DNA of 32,000 nucleotides, taken from contig CANQZM010000006.1 of NCBI GenBank assembly GCA_947628345.1, positions 1 through 32,000 of the forward strand, in the 5' to 3' direction. Under the pieces are notes generated by a model. The model was not told the origin of the DNA, ran no database searches, and saw only the letters and a list, made by a program, of their open reading frames with translations. This DNA comes from an uncultured Bacilli bacterium. GTDB taxonomy: Bacteria; Bacillota_I; Bacilli_A; RF39; UBA660. This document shows, piece by piece, positions 4,733 to 26,876 of the stretch. The translations under genes were made by a program, and so were the position numbers. Position 1 is the first letter of the stretch, and the number at the start of each line of letters is the position of its first letter.

Positions 4733-4768
4733 TGAAAAAAAAGTAATCTAAACAATTATAGATTACTT
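4733..4768 (-). terminator. rho-independent terminator closing the long minus-strand operon
   Basis: On the minus strand, the 10-bp stem AAGTAATCTA / TAGATTACTT (4759-4768 with 4741-4750) flanks an 8-nt loop and is followed by TTTTTT. It overlaps the stop codon of the 436-aa gene. Confidence 0.6.
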
Positions 4769-11062: not shown

Positions 11063-12853
11063 TTATAGTCCTCCTCCACTACCAAACAAATCTAATTCTT
11101 GCTTAGTTACGGAAATATTAATTCTCATTCTTCTATTACCACAAACAAACAGTGCTTCACCTTGTGAATATCTTTTTATGCTTTCTTTTTCACTCTCATT
11201 CAAATCTATTAATAGACTTAAATCTTCAACAGCCTGTTTCTTTAGTCCCATTACTAAATAGTAAGAGGCATTATCAAAAATAGCTTTACCTTGAGTAATA
11301 ACATTAGGTGCTGAAAAATCACTAGGTTGTTGAGTAATAATAATAGTTCCTGTGTTATACTTACGAGCACGTCTTTGTACCTGAGCCAAGAAATCAGCTC
11401 CCAAAGTATTTTGCTCTCCCAACAAGACATGTGCCTCATCAACCATTAAAACTGTATCTACCCTTGGATCTAGGCACAAACTCCAAGCATATTTTAGAAC
11501 ATTAAAGAATAAAGCATTTTTAACATTAGATTCACTATTCATTAACTCTTTAATATTAAATACCATAAAATCACTATTTCCATTAATTGTCGTATGGCCA
11601 TCAAAGTAGAACTTTAATTCTTTAATGATTGGTCTAATTTTCAACTCTAAACGTTCCATTATATCACGTTCTTGAGTTTGTTCTGTCATTGACATAAGAC
11701 GACCCTTGATAGTTGCATAAACATCAGTGAAGGTTGGATAATCTTCCGATGTAAATCCAGAAAAATCAGTGTTAAAATCAATTCCAAAACGTCTATATGT
11801 ATCTTGAACAATTTCACTAAACATAGTTAAAACGTCTTCTTGAATGGAAGGATCATAATACTTCATAAATGCTTTTAAAAATTGCAATGTTCTAGTTAAA
11901 ACTGTATAACCAAGACCTTGTTTTATTTCATCATCATCAGCATCAATTACAACTTCCAATGGATTAATTAACCCAAATTCGCCACCTTTACCAATATCAA
12001 TTTGATCTCCTCCAAATGCTTTCGTAATTTCAGCATACTCATTTTCAGGATCAATGGCAACAATTTGACAACGATTTCTAATATGGGTTCTAAGCATTAG
12101 TTTAGCTGCGGTTGATTTTCCGGAACCAGAGGTACCTAAAATTATCATATTGGCGTTGTTTCTATTATGTTCTTTTCTTATTTTATATAAAAATTGATTA
12201 AATAGGATTACACCACCTGAAAAATCAACTCCTAATAAAGTAGCTAATCCTGGATCTTTAATACTATCAAAAATAAATGGATACATAGCCGCAATGGTTA
12301 TAGATGGAATTGGCGTTCCAATACGTTCTTCAATATCTTGAGATGGAAAAATTGGTAATATTGATTTAAGAACTTTTTCTTGTTCAAAACGAAGTGACAC
12401 TGCCCTTAATTCCATTGCATCTAAATAATTTTTAACATTTACTTTTTTTAGTTCCAAATCTTCTTTTGTATTTGCGGTAATCATAATATGTAATTGGAAA
12501 TCAAAAATACGGGCTTGACTAGCAGCTAACATGGAAATAAAATACTCTAAGCTCTCATAATCTTGTCTAATTCGCTCACGTGATGTTTGATCTCTTTCTT
12601 TGCTGTATCTTTCTTTTAAATCAGCAACTTGTTTATTTAGCATTTTTGATATCATTGAAAAATCAACAGGAATATGTTTAACAACAACTTTAATTCCTGA
12701 CATATTAGTTAAAGTTGATAAATATCCTGGTTGAATATATCTTGGGTAAGAAACTACTGTCAAAATAGTTGCATATTTATCACTAATAAAGAAATCACTT
12801 GCATTAAAGCTTAATCCCTTAGGGGCTAATTGTCCTCTTAAACTTACACTCAT
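11063..12853 (-). CDS. VirB4-family ATPase, ATPase (C-terminal) portion
   Basis: 596 aa. Walker A ILGTSGSGKST, Walker B VLMVDEAHVLL, and IIITQQPSDF. Its ATG overlaps the TGA of the upstream ORF (ATGA). Confidence 0.9.
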   Translation of the reverse strand: MSVSLRGQLAPKGLSFNASDFFISDKYATILTVVSYPRYIQPGYLSTLTNMSGIKVVVKHIPVDFSMISKMLNKQVADLKERYSKERDQTSRERIRQDYESLEYFISMLAASQARIFDFQLHIMITANTKEDLELKKVNVKNYLDAMELRAVSLRFEQEKVLKSILPIFPSQDIEERIGTPIPSITIAAMYPFIFDSIKDPGLATLLGVDFSGGVILFNQFLYKIRKEHNRNNANMIILGTSGSGKSTAAKLMLRTHIRNRCQIVAIDPENEYAEITKAFGGDQIDIGKGGEFGLINPLEVVIDADDDEIKQGLGYTVLTRTLQFLKAFMKYYDPSIQEDVLTMFSEIVQDTYRRFGIDFNTDFSGFTSEDYPTFTDVYATIKGRLMSMTEQTQERDIMERLELKIRPIIKELKFYFDGHTTINGNSDFMVFNIKELMNSESNVKNALFFNVLKYAWSLCLDPRVDTVLMVDEAHVLLGEQNTLGADFLAQVQRRARKYNTGTIIITQQPSDFSAPNVITQGKAIFDNASYYLVMGLKKQAVEDLSLLIDLNESEKESIKRYSQGEALFVCGNRRMRINISVTKQELDLFGSGGGL

Positions 12854-13404
12854 ACTGGCATCACCGTTCCAAATTCTGTTGTCGTTCCCCCATTTAAGAA
12901 ATTATCCAAAACAACTCTCAAATCCTCATTACTAACCTGTGCAGAATTTAACCCACATGTAGCTAATCCATTAATTAGTAATCTTACCTTTTTCTGAATA
13001 ACATCATCATTTTTTTCTTTAAATAATATGTAATATTCTGTATCAACAATATTATTATTAATAAACATTTGTACTTTATCCATATCTTGTAAAATTAATT
13101 TACGAATTGCTGGAACTTGTACATCATTTAATTCTAGTTGTAATTGAGACATATAAACAGATAAATCTACTGGTCTGTCTGCGACTACCAACCAAAATTC
13201 AAAATCAATCATATTATAAAAGTTTTTAAGACTAATTAAAACATTATCTTGCGAAGATGCATCTAATATGAAAATATTACGGGGAGTTATTTTTACTCCT
13301 GTTACTTTATAATTTCCATAAGTATATATCATACTATTTTGAATTGCTCTTACTGGTAGCCAATCTTCTGTCGATCTTCTCCCTTTTTCTTTTGTGTTCG
13401 CCAA
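12850..13404 (-). CDS. VirB4 N-terminal domain encoded as a separate ORF
   Basis: 184 aa. The pattern DWLPVRAIQNSMIYTYGNYKVTGVKITPRNIF matches the conserved start of Firmicutes VirB4-like ATPases as I recall them. The first in-frame start is TTG at 13404, and the next is ATG at 13332. The two ORFs together total about 780 aa, the usual VirB4 length. Confidence 0.65.
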   Translation of the reverse strand: MANTKEKGRRSTEDWLPVRAIQNSMIYTYGNYKVTGVKITPRNIFILDASSQDNVLISLKNFYNMIDFEFWLVVADRPVDLSVYMSQLQLELNDVQVPAIRKLILQDMDKVQMFINNNIVDTEYYILFKEKNDDVIQKKVRLLINGLATCGLNSAQVSNEDLRVVLDNFLNGGTTTEFGTVMPV

Positions 13405-13696
13405 TTCTCACACACCAACCTTTCCATTCATAATTTCTCTGATTTGAGAAAAATTCAAATAGTTCTAAAATTACATTTAATATATTATGATAATAAGGTA
13501 CTGGCACAACTAAGAAACCCGTGACTAGTGCCGGCAGTAATATAATAACAGTAACTAAAGTTGATGACATAGGTAAAATTATCATAAATAGTACTGTAAT
13601 TAAAACTCCTGTACCAAATAAAATTAAATCAAGTGGTCTAAACATACCAAATATTAATTGTCCCCTCTTTGTATTAGCGGGAATTAAATAATTCAT
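13334..13696 (-). CDS. VirB3-like / PrgI-TcpE-like small membrane protein
   Basis: 120 aa, RBS GGGGTGA. Two hydrophobic helices directly upstream of VirB4. The N-terminus NTKRGQLIFGMFRPLDLILFG is typical of this class. Confidence 0.6.
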   Translation of the reverse strand: MNYLIPANTKRGQLIFGMFRPLDLILFGTGVLITVLFMIILPMSSTLVTVIILLPALVTGFLVVPVPYYHNILNVILELFEFFSNQRNYEWKGWCVRIGEHKRKREKIDRRLATSKSNSK

Positions 13697-13751
13697 CTAA
13701 CATCACCCCTATTTATTAATCATCCTTAACATATCTTCAATACTCATTAGT

Positions 13752-15803
13752 TCAATCTTCATCATCTTTTTTCCTAGCATCTCTTAAATGATCATTAGTT
13801 TGCTCTGCCATTGCCTTATCTGCATCAACGATTTTATCCAATTCTTTCCGTCTTTGTTCAGCTCTATGAACACCTCTATTTCCAGGAATTGCAGCAACAT
13901 TACGAAGTGTTTCTCTAGCATTACCAGTTCTAATTGCTTCACGTCCTTCGTGGGTAAGTAAATCTCTAAATTGAGTATTCCTACTGGCACCATGTGGATC
14001 ACGAAGATCACCATGTTTAGCTCTATATGAACCTCTTTTTCCACCAACACGAGCCACTTCTTCTTCAGCAGCTTTAAATTTACTTTCTGCTTTAGAGGCT
14101 ATTTCTTCTGTACTCTGAGCATAATCAAATCCGGATTGCTTCATATCTTCAATCTGAGCAAGTGTAAAGTCTACTCCTTCTTTAATACCATGTTGCATTC
14201 TATACCAATCTTCAAGTGCTTGTTTTTCACGATCAGTAAGTGAATCATAACCACTATTATTAATTTTATCCTTGATATCTTTAGCATAATCAGCTGCTCT
14301 TCTAGCATCTTGTGCTGCCTCTTCTAATTCATCTAAATGTTGTGGACCTAAATCATGATTTTTCAAATATCTTTCAGCTCGATGCATTCTAGATGCAGTC
14401 ATATTTTTATCACCGGTCATTATCTGGGCCATGTCATTTCGACCACCAGTATAACTATCACCTAAACCTGGTGCTTGTTTACCTTGATTATATGCTGCAA
14501 TTTGGGTATTAGCATTTTCCCTAATACTATCGAACGCATCTCCTAAAGTTCCTTTTTCACGTAAGGCACCCAACCCAGCTAAAGCAGCTGAAAGTCCAAA
14601 ATTACTAAGATTACCCTTTAATCCTAAAGAATCTTTAATAAATTTAGGTGCAGTCCTAGCAAAATAGAACAGCCCAATTATAATAAATATTGTTGAAATA
14701 GCACCTACAATGCCTTTATCAATAGGTAAAACTAAACCTCTTTTATTAATAATTTCCTGAACTAAGAATAAAACAAAGAAAATAATAATAAGTCTTATAA
14801 ATAAATCTAAATAAGTTGAAGTTAAGGCCTTAACCCAAGATGCAAAAGATCCATCCTTAGACGATTTAGGATCAATATAGCTAATAATTGGGATAGGTGC
14901 TAGTAATCTTAACACAGCTAACTTTAAAGCACGAACGGCAATATCAACACAAAAGCCCAACATAACTACTAAAACAAATAATCCACATATAAAAGAGATA
15001 ATTGGAGTATAAACAAATAAATAATTATCATCTTTTCCATTAGGACCGTTACACCAATCATTTAAATTATCATTACTTAAGATAGTGTTAACTGTAACGT
15101 AATCACTTTTATACCTTTCAACTTTATATGATTCTTCATCCTTTAAATTACACATATAATTGGCTGGATCAGTTGCTCCGTCTTCAGTTGCATTTGATTT
15201 TAAATTAATTCTAACAAACGTCTTTAAAATAAATGTTGCCAGTTGCTGGGCATTACCGGAATTATCAGAATCAAAAGCTTGTTGCCCAGTTTCGGATACC
15301 GAATCATTACTAGAAACATCACCTAATACTAATTTTCCTAGTACATTATTAGATAAGACACGTGATTGTAATGAATATAAAACCCCAAATAGTAAACCAT
15401 TCTCGTTTAAGTATGCATTATAACTACCTTCAGTTGCATTTGGTATATTTAGAGGTATGATAGCTGTAAATAATGCTAACATAACAATAATCCTACTAAT
15501 CATTTTACCCATTCCAACTTCTTTATCATTAAATCGATCGGGATTCATAACAGTTTGCATCAAAGAAACTGATACTTTAAAAATCATAAATACACCAATT
15601 ATCATTTGTACTCTGCCATAAAAATCTATAATAACATCTGATGAAAAAATTTGGGCATCTGCAATATTAAAAAATATCTGATAAACAATTACTAGTAAGT
15701 TATAAACAACCTTATCAAAAGTAGCTAATAAAAATCTAATTATATCCATCCACCAATGTGTAACTTGGGTATCAGTTTCCATTGAAAGTGCTAACTGAAA
15801 CAT
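13752..15803 (-). CDS. VirB6/TrbL-like polytopic channel protein with a long charged C-terminal domain
   Basis: 683 aa, RBS GGGGTGA. It has at least 6 hydrophobic segments, one large Cys-containing loop and about 270 aa of hydrophilic C-terminus. The position upstream of VirB3/VirB4 fits a VirB6 role. Confidence 0.6.
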   Translation of the reverse strand: MFQLALSMETDTQVTHWWMDIIRFLLATFDKVVYNLLVIVYQIFFNIADAQIFSSDVIIDFYGRVQMIIGVFMIFKVSVSLMQTVMNPDRFNDKEVGMGKMISRIIVMLALFTAIIPLNIPNATEGSYNAYLNENGLLFGVLYSLQSRVLSNNVLGKLVLGDVSSNDSVSETGQQAFDSDNSGNAQQLATFILKTFVRINLKSNATEDGATDPANYMCNLKDEESYKVERYKSDYVTVNTILSNDNLNDWCNGPNGKDDNYLFVYTPIISFICGLFVLVVMLGFCVDIAVRALKLAVLRLLAPIPIISYIDPKSSKDGSFASWVKALTSTYLDLFIRLIIIFFVLFLVQEIINKRGLVLPIDKGIVGAISTIFIIIGLFYFARTAPKFIKDSLGLKGNLSNFGLSAALAGLGALREKGTLGDAFDSIRENANTQIAAYNQGKQAPGLGDSYTGGRNDMAQIMTGDKNMTASRMHRAERYLKNHDLGPQHLDELEEAAQDARRAADYAKDIKDKINNSGYDSLTDREKQALEDWYRMQHGIKEGVDFTLAQIEDMKQSGFDYAQSTEEIASKAESKFKAAEEEVARVGGKRGSYRAKHGDLRDPHGASRNTQFRDLLTHEGREAIRTGNARETLRNVAAIPGNRGVHRAEQRRKELDKIVDADKAMAEQTNDHLRDARKKDDED

Positions 15804-15832: not shown

Positions 15833-16270
15833 TTATTTTAAACCGCAATTAGCATTATCGGCTGTAATACCAAATAATCCTAATAGAATTTGAGTTAAGA
15901 ATGGTACAAAAAATAAAAGTAATGCAGCAATCAATCTGTATACAAATTTTGTTTGTGCCTTTTTCATATTTTCTTCATCCGATGTAATAATTGCTTTAGC
16001 AAAATCAATACTTCCTAAAACAATTGCTATCATAGGACCCAATATTTTTATATAATTTAGTAATCGTTGTATCAACCAAGCTACTGAATTTTCATCATTT
16101 TCAGCATCTCCTAAAACATCTTTACATGTACTTAGACCTGTATTTGCAAATTGCTTTTCAATTTGTACAGGACCATCTATTTTCAATTCCTTGGCTTTGA
16201 CATCATATGTAACAAATATTGTTATTAATATTAAAAATAAAAAAGCGATTTTTCCATACTTTATGAACAT
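15833..16270 (-). CDS. VirB2/TrbC-like pilin-type protein (signal peptide plus two TM helices around a charged loop)
   Basis: 145 aa. Signal peptide ending VKA-KE. TM1 ILGPMIAIVLGSIDFAKAII, loop TSDEENMKKAQTK, TM2 LIAALLLFFVPFLTQILLGLFGI. It is a paralog of 16370-16708. Confidence 0.6.
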   Translation of the reverse strand: MFIKYGKIAFLFLILITIFVTYDVKAKELKIDGPVQIEKQFANTGLSTCKDVLGDAENDENSVAWLIQRLLNYIKILGPMIAIVLGSIDFAKAIITSDEENMKKAQTKFVYRLIAALLLFFVPFLTQILLGLFGITADNANCGLK

Positions 16271-16309
16271 AACTAAGCCACATCCTCATTTACATAATGT
16301 ATCATCATA

Positions 16310-16338
16310 AGTATAACAAAAAAAAAAAGAAATATCAA
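16310..16338 (-). promoter_or_regulatory. sigma-A-like promoter for the 145-aa VirB2-like gene (-35 TTGATA, 17-nt spacer, -10 TATACT)
   Basis: Minus strand reads TTGATA (16338-16333), TTTCTTTTTTTTTTTGT, TATACT (16315-16310). RBS GAGGA lies downstream. Confidence 0.45.
16318..16328 (-). repeat. homopolymer: T11 on the coding strand (A11 on plus), inside the promoter spacer
   Basis: Counted directly: 11 consecutive A on the plus strand at 16318-16328. Confidence 0.95.
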
Positions 16339-16369
16339 TTTATATTTCATTTTTTTTAATATATTTCGA

Positions 16370-16708
16370 TTAAGCTGCTTGTTCCCAACAATCTGCCCAA
16401 CTATTAGAACTACCTCCAATATTTTCATCATTAGAAGTACCAACTAGTCCCATAATAACTGTTACTAAAGTAACTATAAAGAAAATTAAAACAGCATATA
16501 TACAACGTTTAATCAATCTACTTTGGGCTGCTTTTACTTCCTTGTCATCACTAGAAATAACTGCTTTACCTAAATCAATAGTTCCCATTACAATTAAAAC
16601 AATTGGAATACCTATTTGAATTATTGGTAAAAGTCCCTTTCTAACTAATCTAACAATTGACGTTAATCCTCTACATGGATCTCCGGCACCTATTTGAAAT
16701 AATTCCAT
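16370..16708 (-). CDS. VirB2/TrbC-like pilin-type protein, second paralog
   Basis: 112 aa, RBS AAGGAGAGG. TM1 LLPIIQIGIPIVLIVMGTIDLGKAVI, loop SSDDKEVKAAQSR, TM2 IYAVLIFFIVTLVTVIMGLVG. It shares the G.ID..KA.I.SD.....K.AQ pattern with the 145-aa protein. Confidence 0.6.
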   Translation of the reverse strand: MELFQIGAGDPCRGLTSIVRLVRKGLLPIIQIGIPIVLIVMGTIDLGKAVISSDDKEVKAAQSRLIKRCIYAVLIFFIVTLVTVIMGLVGTSNDENIGGSSNSWADCWEQAA

Positions 16709-16730: not shown

Positions 16731-16750
16731 ACTATTGTAAACTATTGTAG
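16731..16750 (-). repeat. tandem 10-nt direct repeat ACTATTGTA(A/G) x2 in the promoter region
   Basis: Plus strand actattgtaa actattgtag at 16731-16750. Each copy carries a TACAAT hexamer on the minus strand. Confidence 0.9.
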
Positions 16751-16763
16751 GTATCTTTGTCAA
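16734..16763 (-). promoter_or_regulatory. sigma-A-like promoter for the 112-aa VirB2-like gene (-35 TTGACA, 18-nt spacer, -10 TACAAT)
   Basis: Minus strand has consensus TTGACA at 16763-16758 and TACAAT at 16739-16734. It lies in the 76-nt gap after the TadZ-like gene. Confidence 0.5.
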
Positions 16764-16784: not shown

Positions 16785-17777
16785 TTACCTTTTACCAAAA
16801 ATACCAAATATTTTATTACCTTCACTTTTTCTAGCGGCAGTATTATCAATTAATCCCAACCTATACAATAAATCATGTAACATTGGATTTTTGGCTCTTT
16901 CATCTAATGCAGGAATACTGTAAAAGAATTTTACAGATGCTTCATATTCCAATTCATTGATATCTTTATTAGATAACATACATTTATTTAGCACTATTTT
17001 TTTATTTTGTAGTTTTTCAAAGACTGTGCGATTGGTTTTTACTAACTTATTTAACATGACTGTGCTAGGTTCAAGTAAATATAAAATTTCATCACACATA
17101 GTATCTGTTTTACAATTATTTAAATCAATAATTACTACTATAGGATGATCTAACCCTGCTATTTTTTTCATTAACTCGCTTTCATTAACTGAAAACATAT
17201 TTTTGTCATTGAAATATACAAAATCCTTTTTATTTACTTCAATTGCATATACTGAGTTACCATAAATATCTGTTAATTCTTTTTTTAACATATATGATAA
17301 AGTAGTTGCCCCAGCATGTTCAGTAACATTTTTTATTCCTAGAATTTTATTACTTCTACCAGCGCCACTTACCCTATTACTGATTTCTGCAGATGCATTA
17401 TTAAGTTGTTGAATTTTTTCTACATCTTTATAAGTATTAGGCTTTTCAATTAATTGTTTTATAGCATTTATATTATTAGTAAAATTATAAATACCCATTG
17501 ATACCAAATTAGATAAATAATTACCTGAAGTACATACTTCATCAGTAAGTACTAGAATTAATTTACTTTCTCCCAGTCCTATAGCAAGTTGCTTTATATT
17601 TTGTATATCTTTATAATTTTTTATAGCTGTAATATCTAAAATCATTCTATCAAAAAAGAAGTCTTTGAATATCGCAACTAATTCATTAACTTCAAATTCA
17701 CCAGTGACATCTTTTATAACTTCGATATCAAGATTAGATAATGAATCTTTTCTTTCATTAGCTACTACAACATTCAA
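16785..17777 (-). CDS. TadZ/CpaE-like protein: receiver-like N-domain plus ParA/MinD-like domain with a degenerate Walker A
   Basis: 330 aa. TTG start with RBS AAGGAG 8 nt upstream. The segment ILGIKNVTEHAGATTLSYML sits where the deviant Walker A (KGGxGK[ST]) would be. Hydrophobic beta-strand patterns such as VVIIDLN are ParA-like. Confidence 0.4.
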   Translation of the reverse strand: MNVVVANERKDSLSNLDIEVIKDVTGEFEVNELVAIFKDFFFDRMILDITAIKNYKDIQNIKQLAIGLGESKLILVLTDEVCTSGNYLSNLVSMGIYNFTNNINAIKQLIEKPNTYKDVEKIQQLNNASAEISNRVSGAGRSNKILGIKNVTEHAGATTLSYMLKKELTDIYGNSVYAIEVNKKDFVYFNDKNMFSVNESELMKKIAGLDHPIVVIIDLNNCKTDTMCDEILYLLEPSTVMLNKLVKTNRTVFEKLQNKKIVLNKCMLSNKDINELEYEASVKFFYSIPALDERAKNPMLHDLLYRLGLIDNTAARKSEGNKIFGIFGKR

Positions 17778-17790
17778 AATATCAACTCCT

Positions 17791-18267
17791 TTAATGTGAT
17801 TTTATAGCTTTAGTTGTTCCATTAACTTGAAAAATTTTCATGTTAGGTATAAATTTATTAAGTAGAGGAATATCAATATTAACAGCTGTAGTTACTGTAT
17901 AGTATTTTACTGGTAATTCTCCAGTACTACGATTTTGTTCTACAACACAAAATCCCAAAGTATTGTCACAATATGGATCACTACAACTTATTCCTGTAGA
18001 ACCATTACATTCAGCAGGAACATCTGCATTTAATTGAGTACTTAAACTATAACCGATTGATTTCCTATATCCATCAATAGTTTTTGTTAATACACTGTTG
18101 GATTCTCCAACACCTACTCCTTCATACTGCTCAATCAAATTAATTATTTTATTTTTGTATCTAAAGGCTTTATTATAGTTTGCCGCAAAAGCTAAATAAC
18201 CATTTACAATCACGATAAATACCACAATAAACCCAATATTGACTATTCCACCTAACGCATCACGCAT
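17791..18267 (-). CDS. pilin-like (TadE/minor-pilin-like) N-anchored protein with a 4-Cys C-terminal region
   Basis: 158 aa. A short basic leader MRDALGG precedes the hydrophobic helix IVNIGFIVVFIVIV. The Cys cluster is CNGSTGISCSDPYCDNTLGFC. It lies directly downstream of the Flp-like ORF. Confidence 0.4.
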   Translation of the reverse strand: MRDALGGIVNIGFIVVFIVIVNGYLAFAANYNKAFRYKNKIINLIEQYEGVGVGESNSVLTKTIDGYRKSIGYSLSTQLNADVPAECNGSTGISCSDPYCDNTLGFCVVEQNRSTGELPVKYYTVTTAVNIDIPLLNKFIPNMKIFQVNGTTKAIKSH

Positions 18268-18313
18268 ACTTAATCACACCCTATGAAACTATAATTTTGT
18301 ACTTTTTAAAGTA

Positions 18314-18466
18314 TTATTTAGGCTTACCTTGACTAATAGAATTCCATTGTTGATTAATTGATGTCTTGATATTTGGCCACATAAATGTCAAAAAGAATGC
18401 ACTAACTGCGGCGATAGCTATCAATGTAATAACCGTTAAATTTAATTCTCCTGATGCTGCCTTCAT
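18314..18466 (-). CDS. Flp-like small pilin candidate (50 aa), absent from the ORF track
   Basis: Hand translation gives MKAASGELNLTVITLIAIAAVSAFFLTFMWPNIKTSINQQWNSISQGKPK. It has a short basic leader ending in Gly, a ~22-aa hydrophobic helix and a short polar tail. RBS AAAGGAAG. It sits between the TadC and pilin-like genes behind a strong promoter. Confidence 0.5.
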   Translation of the reverse strand: MKAASGELNLTVITLIAIAAVSAFFLTFMWPNIKTSINQQWNSISQGKPK

Positions 18467-18501
18467 ATACAATATACACTTCCTTTCATCTTATATAAAT
18501 T

Positions 18502-18530
18502 ATTATACCAATTTTTTTTAATTTTAACAA
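18502..18530 (-). promoter_or_regulatory. strong sigma-A-like promoter for the Flp-like ORF (-35 TTGTTA, 17-nt spacer, extended -10 TGgTATAAT)
   Basis: Minus strand reads TTGTTA (18530-18525), AAATTAAAAAAAATTGG, TATAAT (18507-18502), with TG at 18510-18509. Confidence 0.55.
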
Positions 18531-18554
18531 TATAGTTTTTGTATATAATTTTTA

Positions 18555-19340
18555 TTATGATAAATTAAACATACCCATCATTGAAATTAAGACTATAACC
18601 ATAACCGAAATACCTGTTACAACAAGCATAATCATTGTTAAACTTTCCATATGTCCTAAACGTTCTTTATATTTAATTTCACGAGCTTTATTTTGTAAAT
18701 TTGACACCGTTCTAGAAAACATCATTAAACGTTCTTGTTTATTTTCTTGAGAACCAATACCTAAACGATAAAGTAATCTCATCATTCGCATTGAATCTCG
18801 AACTGGATAAGTATTAGAAAATTCCATATAAGGATCAATACTAGAATCACCAGCATTAACTCTTTCTACAATTTTTCTTAATCCAGGTTTAAAAATTTCT
18901 GGAGCATCATCAATTGATTTACCAATGGCAACAGGAACAGTATAATGCTGTATCAAAATTTCTAAGCTCTTTAAATAATATGGCAACATAATGTCAATTT
19001 CATGTAAATGAGCTTTATAATACTGTTGTAATTGTAAATATGGTAATTTAAAAACTCCAAACATTATAGCTATAGTAATAACAATATTTATTAAGGAAAT
19101 ATCACCTAAAATGAGTATTAAGAAAATAAATCCAACTATCAACCCTGTTGTTATTCTTTTTCTAAATAATAAATCTGGTACTACATCCTCTCCATAACGA
19201 GCATATAATAAGAAATCATAGTCTTCTTCTCTTAAAACTTGAAAATATTTTTCATTATCAATCAAAAATTTTTTACCATCAACTGTTTTATTATAAAATA
19301 ATATAAAAACTATAATGGCACAAACTATAATAATTTCCAT
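18555..19340 (-). CDS. tadC: TadC-like platform protein (T2SS-F / GspF family)
   Basis: 261 aa. TM helices flank a helical cytoplasmic domain (YLKSLEILIQHYTVPVAIGKSIDDAPEIFKPGLRKIVERVNAG...), with a C-terminal TM. It is coupled to TadB by a TAATG overlap. Confidence 0.65.
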   Translation of the reverse strand: MEIIIVCAIIVFILFYNKTVDGKKFLIDNEKYFQVLREEDYDFLLYARYGEDVVPDLLFRKRITTGLIVGFIFLILILGDISLINIVITIAIMFGVFKLPYLQLQQYYKAHLHEIDIMLPYYLKSLEILIQHYTVPVAIGKSIDDAPEIFKPGLRKIVERVNAGDSSIDPYMEFSNTYPVRDSMRMMRLLYRLGIGSQENKQERLMMFSRTVSNLQNKAREIKYKERLGHMESLTMIMLVVTGISVMVIVLISMMGMFNLS

Positions 19341-20233
19341 TACTCAGCCCCCACATTCTCATTATAATATTTTTCTCCTCTCATGAGAAAGATACTATTA
19401 ACTATTGCTGCTCCATGCATCAATATTTTAACTATTGGCTTTTCTAAAAGGAGCAAATATGATTCTCTTCCTAATAAAAGTTGAGTTAACATTAATAAAA
19501 AATATAACATTATTCCAAATTGTAGGAATTGTTTATGGAAAGTTGCTCTATCTTGTCTATCACGATAAACACTTTCTACTAACATATCAATATCTTGTTG
19601 CATATTTTCCAAACTATCTGCTGAATTTCTCGCACCTTCTTTTGTAATTTGTAAAAATAATTGATGCATATTTTTAACAATATAATATGGATATAAATTA
19701 GACATATATTTTAGAGCCTCATCAATTGTTCCATTTTGGTAAGATAACTCTATCATATGATTAACATCAGTTTTTACGGGATCTTCTAAAACACCTGAAT
19801 CTCTAACTCCTTCAATTGATTTTACAAATGACTGAGTTGTTGCAAATTCCATAATAGTGTTTGAGGTATATACTTGAACTTGTTCAAAAATAAATTCACT
19901 GTAAATTCTTTTACATCTTAAATATGATAGATAAGGAATTACCATAATAACTGCAACGACATAAATTACACTAATTACAACATTATAGAAATACAAATAA
20001 CTAATTACTGCGGTAAAAGTAGAAAATACAGCTACTTGAATAGCGTATTGTCTCACAGTATACTCTTTTCCCAATTGCTTTGTCTTTTCTCTAACTACTT
20101 TAAATGAATAAGGAGCAAATTTTTCATAGACAGTTCCGACTTTATCAGTAATAAATTTACCTACATTTTGTCCTTCGTAACTACGATATAAAATTACTAC
20201 TCCTGTTATAAGTAGTAGAAGAATCAATTCCAT
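19340..20233 (-). CDS. tadB: TadB-like platform protein (T2SS-F / GspF family)
   Basis: 297 aa with the same architecture. It has an N-terminal TM, an internal TM pair, the helical domain (FVKSIEGVRDSGVLEDP...IDEALKYMSNLYP...ITKEGARNSADSLENM) and C-terminal TM helices. Confidence 0.65.
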   Translation of the reverse strand: MELILLLLITGVVILYRSYEGQNVGKFITDKVGTVYEKFAPYSFKVVREKTKQLGKEYTVRQYAIQVAVFSTFTAVISYLYFYNVVISVIYVVAVIMVIPYLSYLRCKRIYSEFIFEQVQVYTSNTIMEFATTQSFVKSIEGVRDSGVLEDPVKTDVNHMIELSYQNGTIDEALKYMSNLYPYYIVKNMHQLFLQITKEGARNSADSLENMQQDIDMLVESVYRDRQDRATFHKQFLQFGIMLYFLLMLTQLLLGRESYLLLLEKPIVKILMHGAAIVNSIFLMRGEKYYNENVGAE

Positions 20234-20248
20234 AACTAATCACCCCTT

Positions 20249-21553
20249 TTACTGATTGGTTTGATTTGGTGTAGCCATAGCTACATTAACCATATTGTTA
20301 GATACATTTTGTACTCCTCCCAATGCTGAATTTGCAGAAATAGGAGATTGAATTGTACTAATATTTGGTACATTCACTGTTTGAACAGGAGTTGCAACTG
20401 GCATTGCTACTTGTGTAGCAGGAGCTGGTTGAGAAACTGCCTGAGGTTGAGCAGCCTGAGCATTAGCCATGTTTGTATGTGTTGCCTGTTCTCCTTCTTT
20501 CATTTTACTAGTTATTGCATTTATATCAATATTTTGATTTTCCAAATATTCAATTAAATGAGCACTAGGTTTATTTTGCACAGGAGGTTTTCCAAATACT
20601 TTACGATAAATAGTATGTGACTGTGGATTATTATTATCATCCACATAAAATTCAACTACTTCATCTACTTCTCGATGAAATTTTCCATATTCTTTACTAT
20701 AATAAGCTTTAATATGTACCCCCAACTGAATATATCTATAAATAGTTGACAAAAATTGATTAACATCTAAATCAGTTTCCATCAAACTGTATAAACGATA
20801 TGGTATAGCACTGGCTTTATCCGCATGTATTGTGGATAAAATATTATGTCCTGATGAAATTGAATTACGAACCGCACTTACAGCTTCAGCACTACGAACT
20901 TCTGATAATAAAATCCACTTTGGATTTTGTCTCATACATGTAACTAAAACATCAGAATAACTAGCTACATTATTTGTTTTCATAGCTACAATATCTCGCT
21001 GTGGAAAAATTTTATCCAAGTGAAGTTCCAAAGTATCTTCAATGGTAATAACTTTTTCTGTTTCAATTGTATGACTAGCTAAATATTTAATAAATTCTGT
21101 TTTTCCTGAACCTGTTTCTCCAGCTACCATAATATTACAATGTCCTTCTACACACTTAATCAAAATATCATGAATATCAGCTGTAAAATAATCTTCTTGT
21201 AATAATTTATTTTTCTCTAATCTAATTTTTGCTGGTGTTTTACGAATAACACAGGCAATTCCGTTAGTAGCAATCGACTGATGAACGAAATTAAAACGTA
21301 ATTCAGCCGATTCGGCATCTAGAAAAGGTTTTGCATTATTAAAGGTAGTACCCATAACATTTGAACATTGAAAAGCAAGTTTTTCCATAAATTCTGGAGT
21401 TAGACCTGGAATTTCAATACGTTGAGAGCCTTGAGTTAAGGAACGAATCCAAATCTGACCACCATTACAAAATGAAATATCAGTAATATCATCATTATCT
21501 AGTAATGGTTTTAAAGGACCAAAATCAAGCTTATCAAAAACATTTTCTGTCAT
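20249..21553 (-). CDS. tadA: TadA/CpaF-type secretion ATPase (T2SS-E / VirB11 superfamily) with a Gln/Ala/Pro/Val-rich C-terminal tail
   Basis: 434 aa, RBS GGAGG. Walker A VAGETGSGKTEF, Walker B region ILLSEVRSAEA and His box GHNILSTIHA. Confidence 0.85.
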   Translation of the reverse strand: MTENVFDKLDFGPLKPLLDNDDITDISFCNGGQIWIRSLTQGSQRIEIPGLTPEFMEKLAFQCSNVMGTTFNNAKPFLDAESAELRFNFVHQSIATNGIACVIRKTPAKIRLEKNKLLQEDYFTADIHDILIKCVEGHCNIMVAGETGSGKTEFIKYLASHTIETEKVITIEDTLELHLDKIFPQRDIVAMKTNNVASYSDVLVTCMRQNPKWILLSEVRSAEAVSAVRNSISSGHNILSTIHADKASAIPYRLYSLMETDLDVNQFLSTIYRYIQLGVHIKAYYSKEYGKFHREVDEVVEFYVDDNNNPQSHTIYRKVFGKPPVQNKPSAHLIEYLENQNIDINAITSKMKEGEQATHTNMANAQAAQPQAVSQPAPATQVAMPVATPVQTVNVPNISTIQSPISANSALGGVQNVSNNMVNVAMATPNQTNQ

Positions 21554-21588
21554 AAACTGACTACCTCCTATTTATTCTTTGTTATATA

Positions 21589-22392
21589 TTATTCTGTCCA
21601 CTCTGTAACTCTATTAATAAAGTCTCTTAAATCATTACTACTTAATTTTAAATCCCCTGGTTTATCTTTTAAGCTTTCATCAGTTGGAACAGGGATTAAT
21701 TCAGAGTCATATGCTCTTAGGAAACCAGCCTTTTTAAGTAATATATAATAGTCAGATGGCACAGCAAAAATTATCATGCTAGGTTCTCCTTTTTCATTAA
21801 CATTGGCAAATACATTATTACCAGCACTATCTAATACAGCTAAAACTTCAACATTTTCAATTAGTTTACCAACCATTATTTTATCTGTTGTTGTAATTTG
21901 TTGTCCCTCTTCAATAGCATTCATAGCCTTCAAATAAATATCAATATAGTTACCTGGAACAATTGAATTACCATAAGTAGAATTAATATCTACTGATAAA
22001 TTATATAGTACATAACCATTTGGATAGTCATAAATAATCTTATCAGGTAATTGATCTTTTGTTACAACTACAGATTTATAAAACAAACTACCTGCTGGAA
22101 TAATTGTATCGGTTCTAGCAAATTTATCTAATACTTCACTTCTATTAGTATAAGCAGCTCCATCACTAACAGTTTCACTAGAAACATTTTTTTCATCAAT
22201 CATATCATCAGTAATCTGAGTTCCTGGTGATATATCTACTTTAGCATATGGAACTTTAATTGGAGTAATAGCTTTATTTACTCGTGAATTATAACCAAAG
22301 TACAAAACAAAGACAGCTGCTACAATTCCTAGAATTGTAACAGTGTTTTTGTTCGACAAAAATTTTTTTATACCAACACTCAAACTTCCCAT
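21589..22392 (-). CDS. CpaB/RcpC-like Flp pilus assembly protein (N-terminal TM plus SAF-like domain)
   Basis: 267 aa, RBS GGAGGAG. The TM helix is followed by IKVPYAKVDISPGTQITDDMI... and ...IIPAGSLFYKSVV, which matches the SAF/CpaB pattern. Confidence 0.55.
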   Translation of the reverse strand: MGSLSVGIKKFLSNKNTVTILGIVAAVFVLYFGYNSRVNKAITPIKVPYAKVDISPGTQITDDMIDEKNVSSETVSDGAAYTNRSEVLDKFARTDTIIPAGSLFYKSVVVTKDQLPDKIIYDYPNGYVLYNLSVDINSTYGNSIVPGNYIDIYLKAMNAIEEGQQITTTDKIMVGKLIENVEVLAVLDSAGNNVFANVNEKGEPSMIIFAVPSDYYILLKKAGFLRAYDSELIPVPTDESLKDKPGDLKLSSNDLRDFINRVTEWTE

Positions 22393-22864: not shown

Positions 22865-25800
22865 CTACTTAATATTATTCTTTCCACGATTATTTCTAAA
22901 TTTATCAGTGGTAATCGTTCCTATACTTGCAAAATTATCCTGACTCATGGACCTATCATACATATTATAAGCATATAATCCAGGAATAATCTCTTTATCG
23001 ACTTCAAATTTACCACCGAATTCTAAGCTAAGTGCTTTTAAGTCATTAATATCATCGGTATCTAAAATAATTCTGAAATCTAAATTTTCATCAGTATAGG
23101 TTCCTGATTCTCCCTTACCATAACAGTCTGGACAATCAGCAGAGTTTGGTATTATAGATCTTGAGTAATCAACTGGATCAACATCATAGCCACTAGCTTT
23201 TAATTTTGTAGCTACTACCTCATCATTAGGTGCAGATAATTTAGCAGAACTTCCCCAGTTATAACCACGTAATCGGTTATTAGGGAACATATTATCAAGT
23301 GAAACAACTCTTATATCGTAGTTCAAAACCGTAGAAATATCATTTCCATCTTGTTTATCAGTATCTGAAGGGCAATCTTCTCTATTACCTTCATCCCCAC
23401 GATAGCAATTTGGACCGTCTGTTGTTTTATTATAAACAGAATAGAAACAACTTAAATTTATATGCCAATTATATTTACCAAATCCCTTAGTATTTGTTCC
23501 TAAATTAGCATCTATTGTAGCACCAGTACTACTAGGAGTAAAATCAGTTGGATACTTATCGGCAGCATACTTATCAACAACTGCCCAATCCCACCATTTT
23601 TTATTAACTTCTGCAGCATCATAAGTAGTACAAACAAATTGACTTTTATTTCTATAACCATCTTTTTTACATTCATAAGATAACTCACCAGTTTTTAAAT
23701 TAATTAAAGTACCAGGGAAAGTTATAGTTGTTTGATAATCAATTGGATTACCACCTAAATCTTTAATATTATTATCATCATAACATTGTCCAAAAATACC
23801 TTCTTCAGATGGATCATTTTCAAATGCAGGTATGAACATTGAAGGTTTAGGTCCATCTTGGTTAGTAATGTCACACATATTAGAATCATCTGAACCTGTA
23901 TTTTTATGTAAATCTGTATGTCCTGTGGAACTTTGACTATTACCATTTTGACTATTTATCTTAATATCAAAATTAGTAGTTGTTTCTGTTGTATCACAAG
24001 CACTTGAAGTTTTACATTTTTGTAAAGCATCATTTATATTTTTAAGACTAGCTTTAACTCCTTTAGTATATTGTTTACTAGTTAATGCATCATCTTTATC
24101 ACAACCATAGAATGAACAACTCATAGTACATTGCCAAGAATTAATTTTTGATCTTTGAGTCTTTATTCCATTATCACTTATATAATATTTTCTATTCTCA
24201 CGTCCATTAGCTACAAAGAATCCTTTAATTAAATCTTTAGTGGTTTCAACATCACGAACATAAAATGGTGCAGCACGAGCTATTTGCATACCAATATCTT
24301 CTACTTCGTTAGCTTTATCTTTTGCTTTTGTAACGCCATCATCCATTTTCCAAGTACATTCACCATCCTCAGTACAATTGAAATGACCCATTGGGTATAA
24401 AGTTTTTGCTTTATAATAAAATTCTGCACATTTTTCTATGTCTGCATCTTCCACAAATCCCCCATTTCGATATATATCACTATTTTCACATATATTATTC
24501 TTATAATAATTTTCATAATTTTTTTCAACTAAATCCTTTTTTGCTTTTACTGTTAACTTAACAATACTACTATTACTATTATCATATATAACAGGTGTTG
24601 TTATAGTGTTCTGAGTTTTTTTAGTACTTGCTGTTTTAGATGTATCATATTTATCTTTATATACTTTGTCATAACATTTATTAATACATTTTTGACTATA
24701 TTGTCCATTATCACAGGAATTTACACAATTATCAAAATCTTGTGAAGGCCCTGCTTGGGTTTTTTGTTTATTGTCTTCACATGCAGGCATTGCAGAACAC
24801 ATATCTCGCTTATTCAAAACATCATTTAATTTATTAAGAATTTGTTCAGTATTATAGTCAACACCACACTCTACTTTACTTTTTACAGTTACTCGATATT
24901 GAAAACATAATCCTGCTTTTACAGTCTGAGGAGGACTATATACTACTGTCAAATGTTCATAACAAGTAGAGTCACAAACCTTTACTGTATCAAGCTTTTC
25001 AACTTGATCTGTATCTTCATTCCATCCTACTAATTTAGCAGACTGTGAACTGGTTTCAGCATATAAATAACTTTTTTGTCCAGAACCAGCTTTATATTTT
25101 CCAGTATGATTAACTGTGTCGTATTCCATATTAGCACTATCATATTCACAATATAATTTTTGATCTCTTACATTAACACTATTAGCAGTTTTTCCTTCTG
25201 TTTTAGAAGAATCTGTAGAATTATAAATATAATAATCATCAACTTGATTTTTTAATGCATTCATTGAAGCTGTAACCGCAGCAACACTAGTTCCTGTAGA
25301 ACCATTTCTAATACGATAGTACATTTCCAATAAAGCATCAGACACTTTTTCAATTTCGTCATCATCTAAATTAAATGGAACTTCTTTATCTTCACAATAA
25401 TGTAAAATTCTACTATAATAATCAGAAATCCATGTATCTTTAACAGCTTGAGATTCATTTTTTACTGAAAACTGGGGATTTGATGAATGTATACCCTCAT
25501 ATGCATTGCTACATTTTTCTCCTTTATGCTCTCTATTTTTATAATTAGTTAAAATAGTTCCACTTTCAGCACCAGGATTTTGAATAAATGCACTTGCGGC
25601 TGTACCTGTTAATTCTATATCATAAGCAGTACTATTTACTCTAACTATATCACCTGCTTCACATTTAACTTTCTTATTATTTTTATTGATGAGCTCATAA
25701 TTCTGATCCTGTAAAACTATAACAATAATTTCTTTTCCTGGATCTAACTCATAAAAATAATCATCGTCCTTTAATATTTCATTCTTTACTCTAGCACCAG

Positions 25801-26122
25801 AATTTTTAATTTCCTCTTTAGTCAAATCATCAGCATTTTCCAAAGAACCGTATGGACCTTCAAATATAATTAATCTATATTTATAGGTATCCGAGTTTTT
25901 AACGGTAATTTTAACTTCTCTTTTTTCAACGCTATTCCAATACTTTCCACTTCTATATCCAGCAGAACGCTGATATGTTCCTGGATCAATTGTTATACCT
26001 ATTTTATCTCGACATGTTTTTCTTGCAGATGCTTTGGTTACTACAGCATATGCACTTTTAGGCAGAAACACAATAGTACAAATAATTATAATTAATAAAA
26101 TTTTACCCCTCAATTTATTCAT
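22865..26122 (-). CDS. giant secreted Cys-rich protein (~1085 aa), function unknown, candidate adhesin or tip component
   Basis: Signal peptide ...FLPKSAYA-VV. I counted about 33 Cys in the mature part, often in close pairs (CDSTC, CSAMPAC, CVNSC, CINKC, CTEDGEC, CTMSCSFYGC, CPDC). I place the start at the ATG at 26122, 9 nt after AAGGAG, rather than at 26131. Confidence 0.75.
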   Translation of the reverse strand: MNKLRGKILLIIIICTIVFLPKSAYAVVTKASARKTCRDKIGITIDPGTYQRSAGYRSGKYWNSVEKREVKITVKNSDTYKYRLIIFEGPYGSLENADDLTKEEIKNSGARVKNEILKDDDYFYELDPGKEIIVIVLQDQNYELINKNNKKVKCEAGDIVRVNSTAYDIELTGTAASAFIQNPGAESGTILTNYKNREHKGEKCSNAYEGIHSSNPQFSVKNESQAVKDTWISDYYSRILHYCEDKEVPFNLDDDEIEKVSDALLEMYYRIRNGSTGTSVAAVTASMNALKNQVDDYYIYNSTDSSKTEGKTANSVNVRDQKLYCEYDSANMEYDTVNHTGKYKAGSGQKSYLYAETSSQSAKLVGWNEDTDQVEKLDTVKVCDSTCYEHLTVVYSPPQTVKAGLCFQYRVTVKSKVECGVDYNTEQILNKLNDVLNKRDMCSAMPACEDNKQKTQAGPSQDFDNCVNSCDNGQYSQKCINKCYDKVYKDKYDTSKTASTKKTQNTITTPVIYDNSNSSIVKLTVKAKKDLVEKNYENYYKNNICENSDIYRNGGFVEDADIEKCAEFYYKAKTLYPMGHFNCTEDGECTWKMDDGVTKAKDKANEVEDIGMQIARAAPFYVRDVETTKDLIKGFFVANGRENRKYYISDNGIKTQRSKINSWQCTMSCSFYGCDKDDALTSKQYTKGVKASLKNINDALQKCKTSSACDTTETTTNFDIKINSQNGNSQSSTGHTDLHKNTGSDDSNMCDITNQDGPKPSMFIPAFENDPSEEGIFGQCYDDNNIKDLGGNPIDYQTTITFPGTLINLKTGELSYECKKDGYRNKSQFVCTTYDAAEVNKKWWDWAVVDKYAADKYPTDFTPSSTGATIDANLGTNTKGFGKYNWHINLSCFYSVYNKTTDGPNCYRGDEGNREDCPSDTDKQDGNDISTVLNYDIRVVSLDNMFPNNRLRGYNWGSSAKLSAPNDEVVATKLKASGYDVDPVDYSRSIIPNSADCPDCYGKGESGTYTDENLDFRIILDTDDINDLKALSLEFGGKFEVDKEIIPGLYAYNMYDRSMSQDNFASIGTITTDKFRNNRGKNNIK

Positions 26123-26876
26123 CTTTATCATCTCCTTCCAATATTTTCTTTATTTCTTTATAATTACTTTTTTCTATTACTTTATAATTTTTAACTAATT
26201 CGTTTTTTCTAACTAATCTTGCATCTACTACAAAGGAATAGTCAGCATTACCAAAGAATCTTGTACAAGTAACTAAAGTAATCAATTTATCACTATCATT
26301 AACATCTACTTTAAAATCAAAGTAACTTTTTTCTTTAGTATATTCAATATAATCTTCTACATCATTTTGATCAATATCTTCTAATTCTAGATCTTCTTCT
26401 TCCTGAAGAGAAACACCATATATTTTAAATAAATAGTTTTTATTATTTATTGTATACTGAATATATTTATTTTCTTTTACAAAATCATAATATATATATC
26501 CCATTAATTGTTCAAATCTAGCATGTTCTTTATTTCCAATTAGTGGTTTACTAGAAACATTTCTCATATTATGAGATAAAATAACTACTCTATTAACAAG
26601 TTTTTTATGATTAGTAAATGTCCATCCTAAATCATAACTAGGATCACTAATATCATCAACATCATAGTAATACATAATTGGAATATCAATATTAGTTCCT
26701 TGAACTCTTAGCCATCCTAAGGGATCTGCATCATTTTTATTAGAGGTAAAGGTTTTTATATTATTTAGTCGATTTTGAACTTTATAATATGGCTTTAACA
26801 TAATAACCGAAGTTATACATAGTATTACTACCAAGAGTAATATTATTTTTTGTTTTTTATTTTTTTTTCCCTTCAT
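26115..26876 (-). CDS. class B-like sortase (N-terminal TM anchor)
   Basis: 253 aa. GWLRVQGTNIDIPIMY, His motif LSHNM, Cys motif LITLVTCT and Arg in VVDARLV. Its stop overlaps the start of the giant protein gene by 8 nt. Confidence 0.8.
   Translation of the reverse strand: MKGKKNKKQKIILLLVVILCITSVIMLKPYYKVQNRLNNIKTFTSNKNDADPLGWLRVQGTNIDIPIMYYYDVDDISDPSYDLGWTFTNHKKLVNRVVILSHNMRNVSSKPLIGNKEHARFEQLMGYIYYDFVKENKYIQYTINNKNYLFKIYGVSLQEEEDLELEDIDQNDVEDYIEYTKEKSYFDFKVDVNDSDKLITLVTCTRFFGNADYSFVVDARLVRKNELVKNYKVIEKSNYKEIKKILEGDDKDE

Follow-up and report, generated by a model that had tools for sequence, protein, structure and literature searches.

What does a type IV secretion system (T4SS) locus in a single-membrane bacterium build from two small hairpin proteins, each with a pair of cysteines outside the membrane? 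The question is raised by a stretch of 32,000 nucleotides (nt) from an uncultured Bacilli bacterium of the order RF39 (contig CANQZM010000006.1, positions 1 to 32,000), hereafter the window, to which all position numbers refer unless another contig or locus is named. Two tandem genes on its minus strand, both taken from the list of open reading frames (ORFs) and separated by 99 nt, encode a short protein of 112 amino acids (aa; 16370..16708) and a long protein of 145 aa (15833..16270). They are a fixed pair of PF18895 helical-hairpin paralogs directly upstream of VirB6/TrbL-like, VirB3-like and VirB4 genes. The initial annotation had read them as VirB2/TrbC-like subunits in which a non-enzymatic disulfide replaces pilin cyclisation. 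The cysteine before the first transmembrane helix (TM1) and the cysteine in the C-terminal tail show a pattern of conservation and replacement that points to an intramolecular disulfide in each protein. We lean, by a modest degree, towards reading the two proteins as VirB2-equivalent subunits, a heterotypic and disulfide-stapled pair that works with VirB6, VirB3 and VirB4.

The kinship of the two proteins is clear. BLASTP aligns 91 aa of them at 38% identity (E 8e-20) and hhalign, run on the two family alignments, gives a probability of 99.2%, bearing out the earlier view of tandem paralogs that share TM1, an acidic/basic loop and a second helix (TM2). Their common core reads GSIDFAKAIITSDEENMKKAQ in one paralog and GTIDLGKAVISSDDKEVKAAQ in the other, with a hydrophobic helix on each side. 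The 145-aa protein consists of a signal peptide (MFIKYGKIAFLFLILITIFVTYDVKA followed by KE, cut at about VKA/KE, residues 26/27), an extracytoplasmic N-tail with C49, TM1, the charged loop (TSDEENMKKAQTKFVYR), TM2 and a short C-tail in which C142 lies within the terminal C-G-L-K. A signal peptide is evident in this protein only; the 112-aa protein has an N-tail with C12, TM1, the charged loop (SSDDKEVKAAQSRLIKR), TM2 and an acidic C-tail whose invariant W-x-x-C-W motif contains C107. The loop, with the consensus S-D-[DE]-x-E-x-K-x-A-Q, is the most conserved part of both family alignments. PF18895 (T4SS_pilin) has a curated gathering cut-off of 26.6 bits, which the 145-aa protein exceeds (30.0 bits, E 5.7e-7, profile positions 5-71 of 71) and the 112-aa protein does not reach (15.6 bits). 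The latter, which has more than 1100 homologs, belongs to the family judging by its paralogy to the 145-aa protein. Both proteins have the architecture of PF18895, two long hydrophobic helices with a short charged loop, and 50 of 61 diverse relatives match the profile.

The four cysteines lie where the initial annotation placed them, one before TM1 and one in the C-tail of each paralog: C49 (LSTCKD) and C142 (NANCGLK) in the 145-aa protein, C12 (DPCRG) and C107 (ADCWEQAA) in the 112-aa protein. Two details did not stand, as C142 is the fourth residue from the end and C49 lies 23 residues past the signal-peptide cut rather than just after it. A lipobox reading of LSTC was rejected on account of this distance and since homologs have D, N or S at positions -1 and -2. 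Conservation of the pair in homologs, the point on which the proposal had been made to depend, is far beyond chance. Among 43 homologs of the 145-aa protein C49 is invariant and C142 is present in at least 90%; among 63 homologs of the 112-aa protein C107 is invariant and C12 is present in at least 90%. A scan of one genome per species yielded 80 related loci, in which both cysteines are present in every short copy (80/80) and in 76/80 long copies, the four exceptions having rewired cysteines or having lost both. Both are likewise present in 138 of 149 cluster representatives with mutual identity of 50% or less, and the tail residues around them vary freely. A third cysteine of the 112-aa protein, C69 at the cytoplasmic start of TM2, is kept in only 36 of 80 homologs.

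The exceptions are informative. The C-tail cysteine is present in 211 of 223 long-type sequences, and none of these 211 has an extra cysteine at -17 to -20 from the TM1 proline. Ten of the 12 long-type sequences that lack the C-tail cysteine have gained one there, often giving the pattern C-x5-C...C-x-C; the replacement lies in the same tail, 11-13 residues from the N-side cysteine. The remaining two are the long copy of locus L068, which has no cysteine at all, and a sequence apparently damaged at its C-terminus. Fisher's test of C-tail cysteine against extra N-side cysteine gives p of about 1e-15, for sequences that are related and not independent. The N-side cysteine is thus never without a partner and is given up only together with it. 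Because loss of the C-tail cysteine coincides with a new partner near the N-side one, or with loss of all cysteines, the cysteine before TM1 and that of the C-tail are predicted to form an intramolecular disulfide. In L068 the adjacent short copy retains both cysteines, which argues against a bond between the short and long proteins and for a self-contained pair in each.

The predicted closed loop spans 94 residues in the long protein (C49-C142) and 96 in the short protein (C12-C107), and about 89-100 across the family. Its size is similar in the two paralogs even though the cysteine offsets differ by 7-8 residues on each side. Since the N-side cysteine has 11-22 residues, or a whole ectodomain, ahead of it, the product would be a lariat and not a true head-to-tail ring. 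This lariat of about 94-96 residues would leave a free N-tail, which in other species is an ectodomain of 250-300 aa.

A staple of this kind needs both tails on the same face of the membrane, and several lines of evidence are consistent with the termini facing outward, as first suggested. AlphaFold2 (AF2) monomer models place helices at 63-96 and 99-132 in the 145-aa protein (mean pLDDT 68.9) and at 16-52, 55-91 and 102-111 in the 112-aa protein (mean pLDDT 75.8). Because the hairpin in each model is formed by two helices of equal length, both cysteine-bearing tails would exit at the same end. A signal-peptide-like N-terminus is found in 79/80 long copies, and in the long paralog lysines plus arginines (K+R) average 0.6 over the 15 residues that precede TM1, against 4.6 in the loop and 0.5 in the C-tail. 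This clear positive-inside pattern predicts an N-out, loop-in, C-out arrangement. In the short paralog K+R is 2.5 before TM1 and double that, 5.0, in the loop, and the C-tail is acidic. The loop of both paralogs, with K+R of 4.6-5.0, also carries about 3 aspartates plus glutamates (D+E). The 15 residues before TM1 differ in sign: here the short paralog is basic (K+R 2.5, D+E 0.3) and the long paralog acidic (K+R 0.6, D+E 2.2). Such complementarity would fit contact between unlike subunits on the outer face.

Further support for an external C-terminus comes from the same genome. Two tandem, near-identical hairpin proteins of 289 aa are encoded on contig C9 (about 11996-13769; locus L087, 7997-9769) among housekeeping genes (RuvX-like, MltG-like, Mur-ligase-like). 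They combine a short-type hairpin, a cluster of cysteines in the N-tail and an A-A-C-W motif after TM2 with a C-terminal domain assigned to the NlpC/P60-like type by its D-C-S-H-F motif only. The C-terminus of this hairpin is predicted to lie outside, because the fused NlpC/P60 wall hydrolase must be extracellular. The hairpin module thus also serves as a plain membrane anchor. Topology, named at the outset as a possible point of failure, is in this way consistent with both termini on one side.

The pair is a constant feature of the lineage. Exactly two tandem pilin-like genes, short then long, are present in 80/80 species loci, in one of which the short gene is split in two; the short gene encodes 100-134 aa and no signal peptide, the long gene 122-435 aa. 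The order CpaF-TadB-TadC-p158-TadZ-short-long-TrbL-VirB3-VirB4N-VirB4C is kept in 67-78 of the 80 loci, and CpaB, at the edge of the 6-kb flank, is caught in only 21. Identity across loci is about 86% for VirB4C, about 82% for CpaF and only about 42% for TrbL. The PF18895-type hairpin family occurs in 193/201 genomes and 94/98 genera of the order; within the class, 34/34 genomes of the host's own family have it, against 4/265 of other families. Among 1.84 billion cluster representatives there are 9,722 relatives at E up to 1e-3; in many, the hairpin forms the C-terminal part of a protein of 200-580 aa. In 25 of the 80 species the long paralog has an extra cysteine-rich N-terminal ectodomain, for a total of 270-435 aa (for example L013 5029-6291, L032 5176-6303 and L081 5242-6324). 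This ectodomain has no Pfam match, diverges strongly between species and could be a displayed adhesin or contact domain.

No plasmid among the 72,556 searched by tblastn matches either window protein, so a known plasmid system is ruled out. Of the relaxase families, two common ones (PF03432 and PF02486) have no match anywhere in the host genome (1.3 Mb, 94.5% complete), which may therefore encode a T4SS without a relaxase, as in most Patescibacteria. All this suggests a chromosomal machine passed on vertically, not a mobile element.

RP4 TrbC and Ti-plasmid VirB2 pilins are the classic head-to-tail cyclised bacterial proteins, and the peptide bond that joins the ends of TrbC/VirB2-type pilins is made by a TraF-type peptidase, a signal-peptidase homolog. 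General Pfam scans of the window ORFs of at least 90 aa named no TraF/S26-type peptidase, no dedicated search having been made. The window proteins resemble TrbC, VirB2 and TrwL in having a signal peptide (long paralog), two transmembrane helices, a cytoplasmic charged loop, a conserved proline early in TM1, and ends that would lie outside and be joined, here by the predicted disulfide. They differ from TrbC and VirB2 in that this bond would link internal cysteines into a lariat and that the host is a monoderm.

According to reviews up to late 2025, Gram-positive T4SSs have no VirB2 outside Patescibacteria (PMC12857230, PMC12102498), where VirB2-like pilin arrays of variable copy number (2-11) accompany a chromosomal, mostly relaxase-less T4SS (PMC12102498; PMC12857230). 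The locus described here shares with these arrays the Pfam family, a small-genome monoderm host, a near-universal chromosomal T4SS and more than one pilin-like gene beside VirB4 and VirB6, and here too relaxases (of the two families searched) were not found. Unlike the arrays, it holds a fixed pair of distinct paralogs, short and leaderless or long with a leader, is coupled to a Tad-like set and belongs to a Bacilli lineage. A cysteine pair in the N- and C-tails is not mentioned in either account (PMC12102498, PMC12857230).

A preprint of December 2025 reports that PrgF of pCF10 (Enterococcus faecalis) is an essential VirB2-like protein and models it as a pilus on a VirB6 pentamer (bioRxiv 10.64898/2025.12.18.695078). 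VirB2-like candidates were found in 95% of 174 Gram-positive plasmid classes, about half of which have several, with almost no sequence homology within the class according to its authors and with no mention of cysteines (bioRxiv 10.64898/2025.12.18.695078). The statement that monoderm T4SSs lack a conjugative pilus, which the initial annotation had given as established, is outdated by this work (bioRxiv 10.64898/2025.12.18.695078). Like PrgF, the window proteins are small, have two transmembrane helices and a short charged loop (S-x-D-D/E in PrgF), and are encoded just upstream of a VirB6-like gene. Both the 112-aa and the 145-aa protein have the features that define the PrgF class: 50-150 aa, two transmembrane helices, PrgF-like topology and proximity to virB6. 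PrgF (75 aa), which belongs to an MPF-FATA-type T4SS and is proposed to polymerise on the VirB6 pentamer, differs in having no signal peptide, no long tails and no cysteine; encoded on a plasmid, it acts in conjugation together with a relaxase, whereas the window pair is chromosomal.

Sequence similarity reaches, at low level, to the mycoplasmas. The 'Mbov_0395 family pilin-like conjugal transfer protein' of Mycoplasma integrative and conjugative elements (ICEs; model NF045849) is matched weakly by 17 of 61 relatives (best E 7.8e-6); the window proteins score 12.3-12.8 bits, far under its 40-bit cut-off, which would indicate distant relatedness only. Eight true members, when translated, show a similar loop (K-x-S-K-A-D-x-x-Q...K-A-K-K) and no N-tail/C-tail cysteine pair. 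Since these proteins share the loop but lack the cysteines, the putative staple is a derived trait of the present branch. The Mycoplasma pilin-like protein is moreover encoded by a single gene on a mobile ICE in wall-less hosts, in contrast to the fixed pair of the window. The neighbouring TrbL-like protein and VirB4 also match Mycoplasma ICE models. One of these, the TrbL-like model NF045848, matches pilin-like hairpins (18/61 relatives) at its positions 59-124 and the window TrbL-like protein at positions 132-314, so the VirB6-like family may contain a pilin-like hairpin at its N-terminus. We found no paper that describes a disulfide between the N-tail and C-tail of a VirB2-type protein.

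We propose the following model for the stapled pair. The long paralog would insert via Sec with a cleaved signal peptide, and the short paralog would insert its N-tail without a leader. Both would adopt an N-out, C-out arrangement with the conserved charged loop in the cytoplasm. On the outer face a disulfide, as the covariation suggests, would close the hairpin into a loop of some 94-96 residues with a free N-tail or variable ectodomain. By analogy with TrbC/VirB2 cyclisation, the staple could lock the two helices together and shield the exposed ends in the gut. Stapled subunits might then pass to the VirB6-like platform, with VirB4 assisting their extraction, as envisaged for VirB2 and PrgF. 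The two paralogs, probably together, could form a short conduit or pilus that crosses the wall, with the variable N-terminal part of the long paralog displayed on the surface.

A number of results weigh against this model. None of the 61 relatives matches PF04956 (TrbC/VirB2) at E up to 1. Probabilities from hhalign are 0.1-0.3% for the family against a 36-sequence TrwL alignment (TrwL of R388 from NC_028464) and 0.05% against PrgF. A family-profile search of PDB chain sequences returned noise only and no pilin, and Foldseek of both AF2 models against the PDB gave no pilin among the matches listed, all with E above 1; these were generic helical hairpins (ATP synthase c, diacylglycerol (DAG) kinase, HtrII). 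The description as VirB2/TrbC-like hence stands as regards the PF18895 family and the place upstream of TrbL/VirB6-VirB3-VirB4, and is not borne out as regards direct homology, none being detectable. AF2 confidence is low in the cysteine-bearing tails of both models. The hairpin that anchors a hydrolase elsewhere in the genome is the same, so the module need not polymerise, and to our knowledge no pilus has been seen in this lineage. With respect to the bond itself, searches of the 94.5%-complete genome for DsbA, DsbB, VKOR and Thioredoxin_4 gave no match, and the genome-wide share of proteins with an even number of cysteines, from crude signal-peptide calls, shows no clear bias (0.54 for exported proteins versus 0.45).

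Absence of these four families was at first read as absence of an oxidase, a reading revised after exported thioredoxin-fold proteins, scoring under the family cut-offs, were found to be encoded in the genome. A 427-aa protein (contig C53) and its 412-aa paralog (contig C6, about 4.4 kb past the end of the window) each have a signal peptide, a thioredoxin/glutaredoxin-like domain with a DsbA-like C-P-H-C site and a polytopic membrane part that has conserved cysteines (NPC, ELACSAG) and no Pfam match. The 427-aa type is present in 89/101 genomes of the order. A 200-aa membrane-anchored C-Q-Y-C protein weakly resembles PedC/BrcD and the F-plasmid TrbB isomerase. In this lineage, which lacks DsbA and DsbB, the CPHC proteins are candidates for a thiol-disulfide system outside the cytoplasm. 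That the bond forms non-enzymatically, as had been suggested, is not established, given that exported thioredoxin-fold proteins are present and one type has the CPHC site. The CPHC genes come last in a duplicated three-gene set, after those for a cysteine desulfurase and a small thioredoxin (contig C6, about 36419-39033, locus L099 4620-7234; copy on C53, L097).

The alternative that survives best, and which we regard as possible though clearly the less probable, is that the two proteins stay in the membrane as static parts of the T4SS, be it as scaffold, channel lining or assembly factor. Neither would ever be extruded, the disulfide would only stabilise the outer face, and the Tad-like set would make the only filament of the locus. 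Use of the hairpin as anchor of an NlpC/P60 hydrolase fits this alternative, as do the lack of detectable homology to pilus-forming VirB2, the complete Tad-like set next door, with an Flp-like pilin of its own, and the ectodomains of 200-450 aa in many family members, which would be bulky on a tight pilus. However, in F-type and T-type pili both termini lie on the outer surface (bioRxiv 10.64898/2025.12.18.695078), so an N-terminal domain could decorate a filament. The place before VirB6, VirB3 and VirB4 and the architecture of two helices with a charged loop match VirB2 and PrgF, and the high conservation of the loop is that expected if it lines a lumen or touches an ATPase.

An unlikely alternative is that the disulfides are intermolecular, from the N-side cysteine of one subunit to the C-tail cysteine of the next, or from short to long, and cross-link a polymer or heterodimer. 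A homotypic head-to-tail link would give the same covariation as an internal bond, and the opposite charges before TM1 (short K+R 2.5, long D+E 2.2) hint at pairing. Locus L068 speaks against a short-long bond, as its long copy is cysteine-free while its short copy keeps both. In 10 of the 12 sequences without a C-tail cysteine the replacement, 11-13 residues from the N-side cysteine, is a local and intramolecular solution, and the hydrolase-anchored paralogs keep the cysteine motifs with no sign of polymerisation. Finally, although fold searches cannot separate this hairpin from any other helical hairpin and the genome lacks a classical Dsb system, an unrelated two-helix family (holin-like or other) with metal-binding or lipid- or thioester-modified cysteines is most improbable, since 50/61 relatives match PF18895 and only two touch a holin model (Phage_holin_1, E 0.29, nothing better), the gene order within the T4SS is strictly conserved, the N-side cysteine lies outside any lipobox, two cysteines alone make a poor metal site and the partner-swap pattern is typical of disulfides.

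The neighbouring genes supply the machine on which stapled VirB2-like subunits would depend; those of the TrbL-like, VirB3-like, VirB4 and Tad-like proteins are on the minus strand. A TrbL/VirB6-like polytopic membrane protein of 683 aa (13752..15803) is encoded from 30 nt downstream of the pair, and follows it directly in 76/80 related loci. It scores 26.6 bits against PF19597 (TrbL_4), just under the cut-off of 27, and matches NF045848 with E 6.8e-7, far under the cut-off of that model. Such a protein is the expected assembly platform for VirB2-like subunits. Profile searches identify next a VirB3-like protein (120 aa), a VirB4 N-part (184 aa) and a VirB4 ATPase part (596 aa) at 11063..13696, separate ORFs in at least 70/80 loci. 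The two VirB4 ORFs of the window (12850-13404 and 11063-12853) overlap at ATGA. Because the halves are likewise separate in related species (74/80 and 70/80 loci; the starts lie some 570 nt from each other), the split seems to be ancestral and not an artefact of sequencing. Further downstream are a SpoIID/C39-type wall hydrolase and then VirD4, followed by a 436-aa ORF (4767-6077) with no family match.

Directly upstream of the pair, as first noted and now borne out by profile searches, is a Tad-like set (16785..22392) of a TadZ-like protein, a 158-aa cysteine-bearing protein, TadC/TadB-like proteins, the CpaF ATPase and CpaB; a sortase and surface proteins are encoded farther upstream. Exported proteins of the locus are rich in cysteine. 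A 1088-aa protein (22865-26131) has about 33, and the 158-aa protein beside TadZ (17791-18267) has four after its first 30 residues. Elsewhere in the genome there are two very cysteine-rich exported proteins, with 52 (contig C64) and 46 cysteines (contig C45). Each gene of the pair had been credited with its own promoter-like element, and consensus matches are indeed present: TTGACA-18-TACAAT (16734..16763, minus strand) upstream of the 112-aa gene, followed by a GGAGAGG ribosome-binding site, and TTGATA-17-(TG)TATACT (16310..16338, minus strand) within the 99-nt gap upstream of the 145-aa gene. The hexamers match consensus at 11/12 and 10/12 positions, respectively. The stretch is AT-rich and the number of such sites, 7 against 8.9 +/- 2.8 in shuffles, is not in excess. 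A 56-codon ORF (16273-16443) reads in a different frame across the 3' end of the 112-aa gene and was for that reason rejected as spurious.

Put together in its boldest form, which we offer as speculation and think rather doubtful as a whole, the lineage would build a conjugation-type filament of two disulfide-closed VirB2-like subunits on a chromosomal, probably relaxase-less T4SS that is fused genetically to a Tad-like machine. By analogy with Patescibacteria the apparatus might serve contact with other cells or the host and not the transfer of plasmids, and the hypervariable cysteine-rich ectodomain of the long subunit could be the contact surface.

VirB2-like subunits in single-membrane bacteria have only just been accepted, for Patescibacteria in 2023-2025 and with the PrgF preprint of December 2025. 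The locus adds a large, lineage-wide chromosomal example from common uncultured bacteria of the human and animal gut, with a design of its own in the obligate use of two subunits and a variable surface domain. How extracellular disulfides come about in an anaerobe that lacks DsbA and DsbB is a further question that it poses, one for which the genome offers candidate enzymes. If the proposed staple is real, it would join the same two ends by different chemistry, an independent solution to the problem that pilin cyclisation solves.

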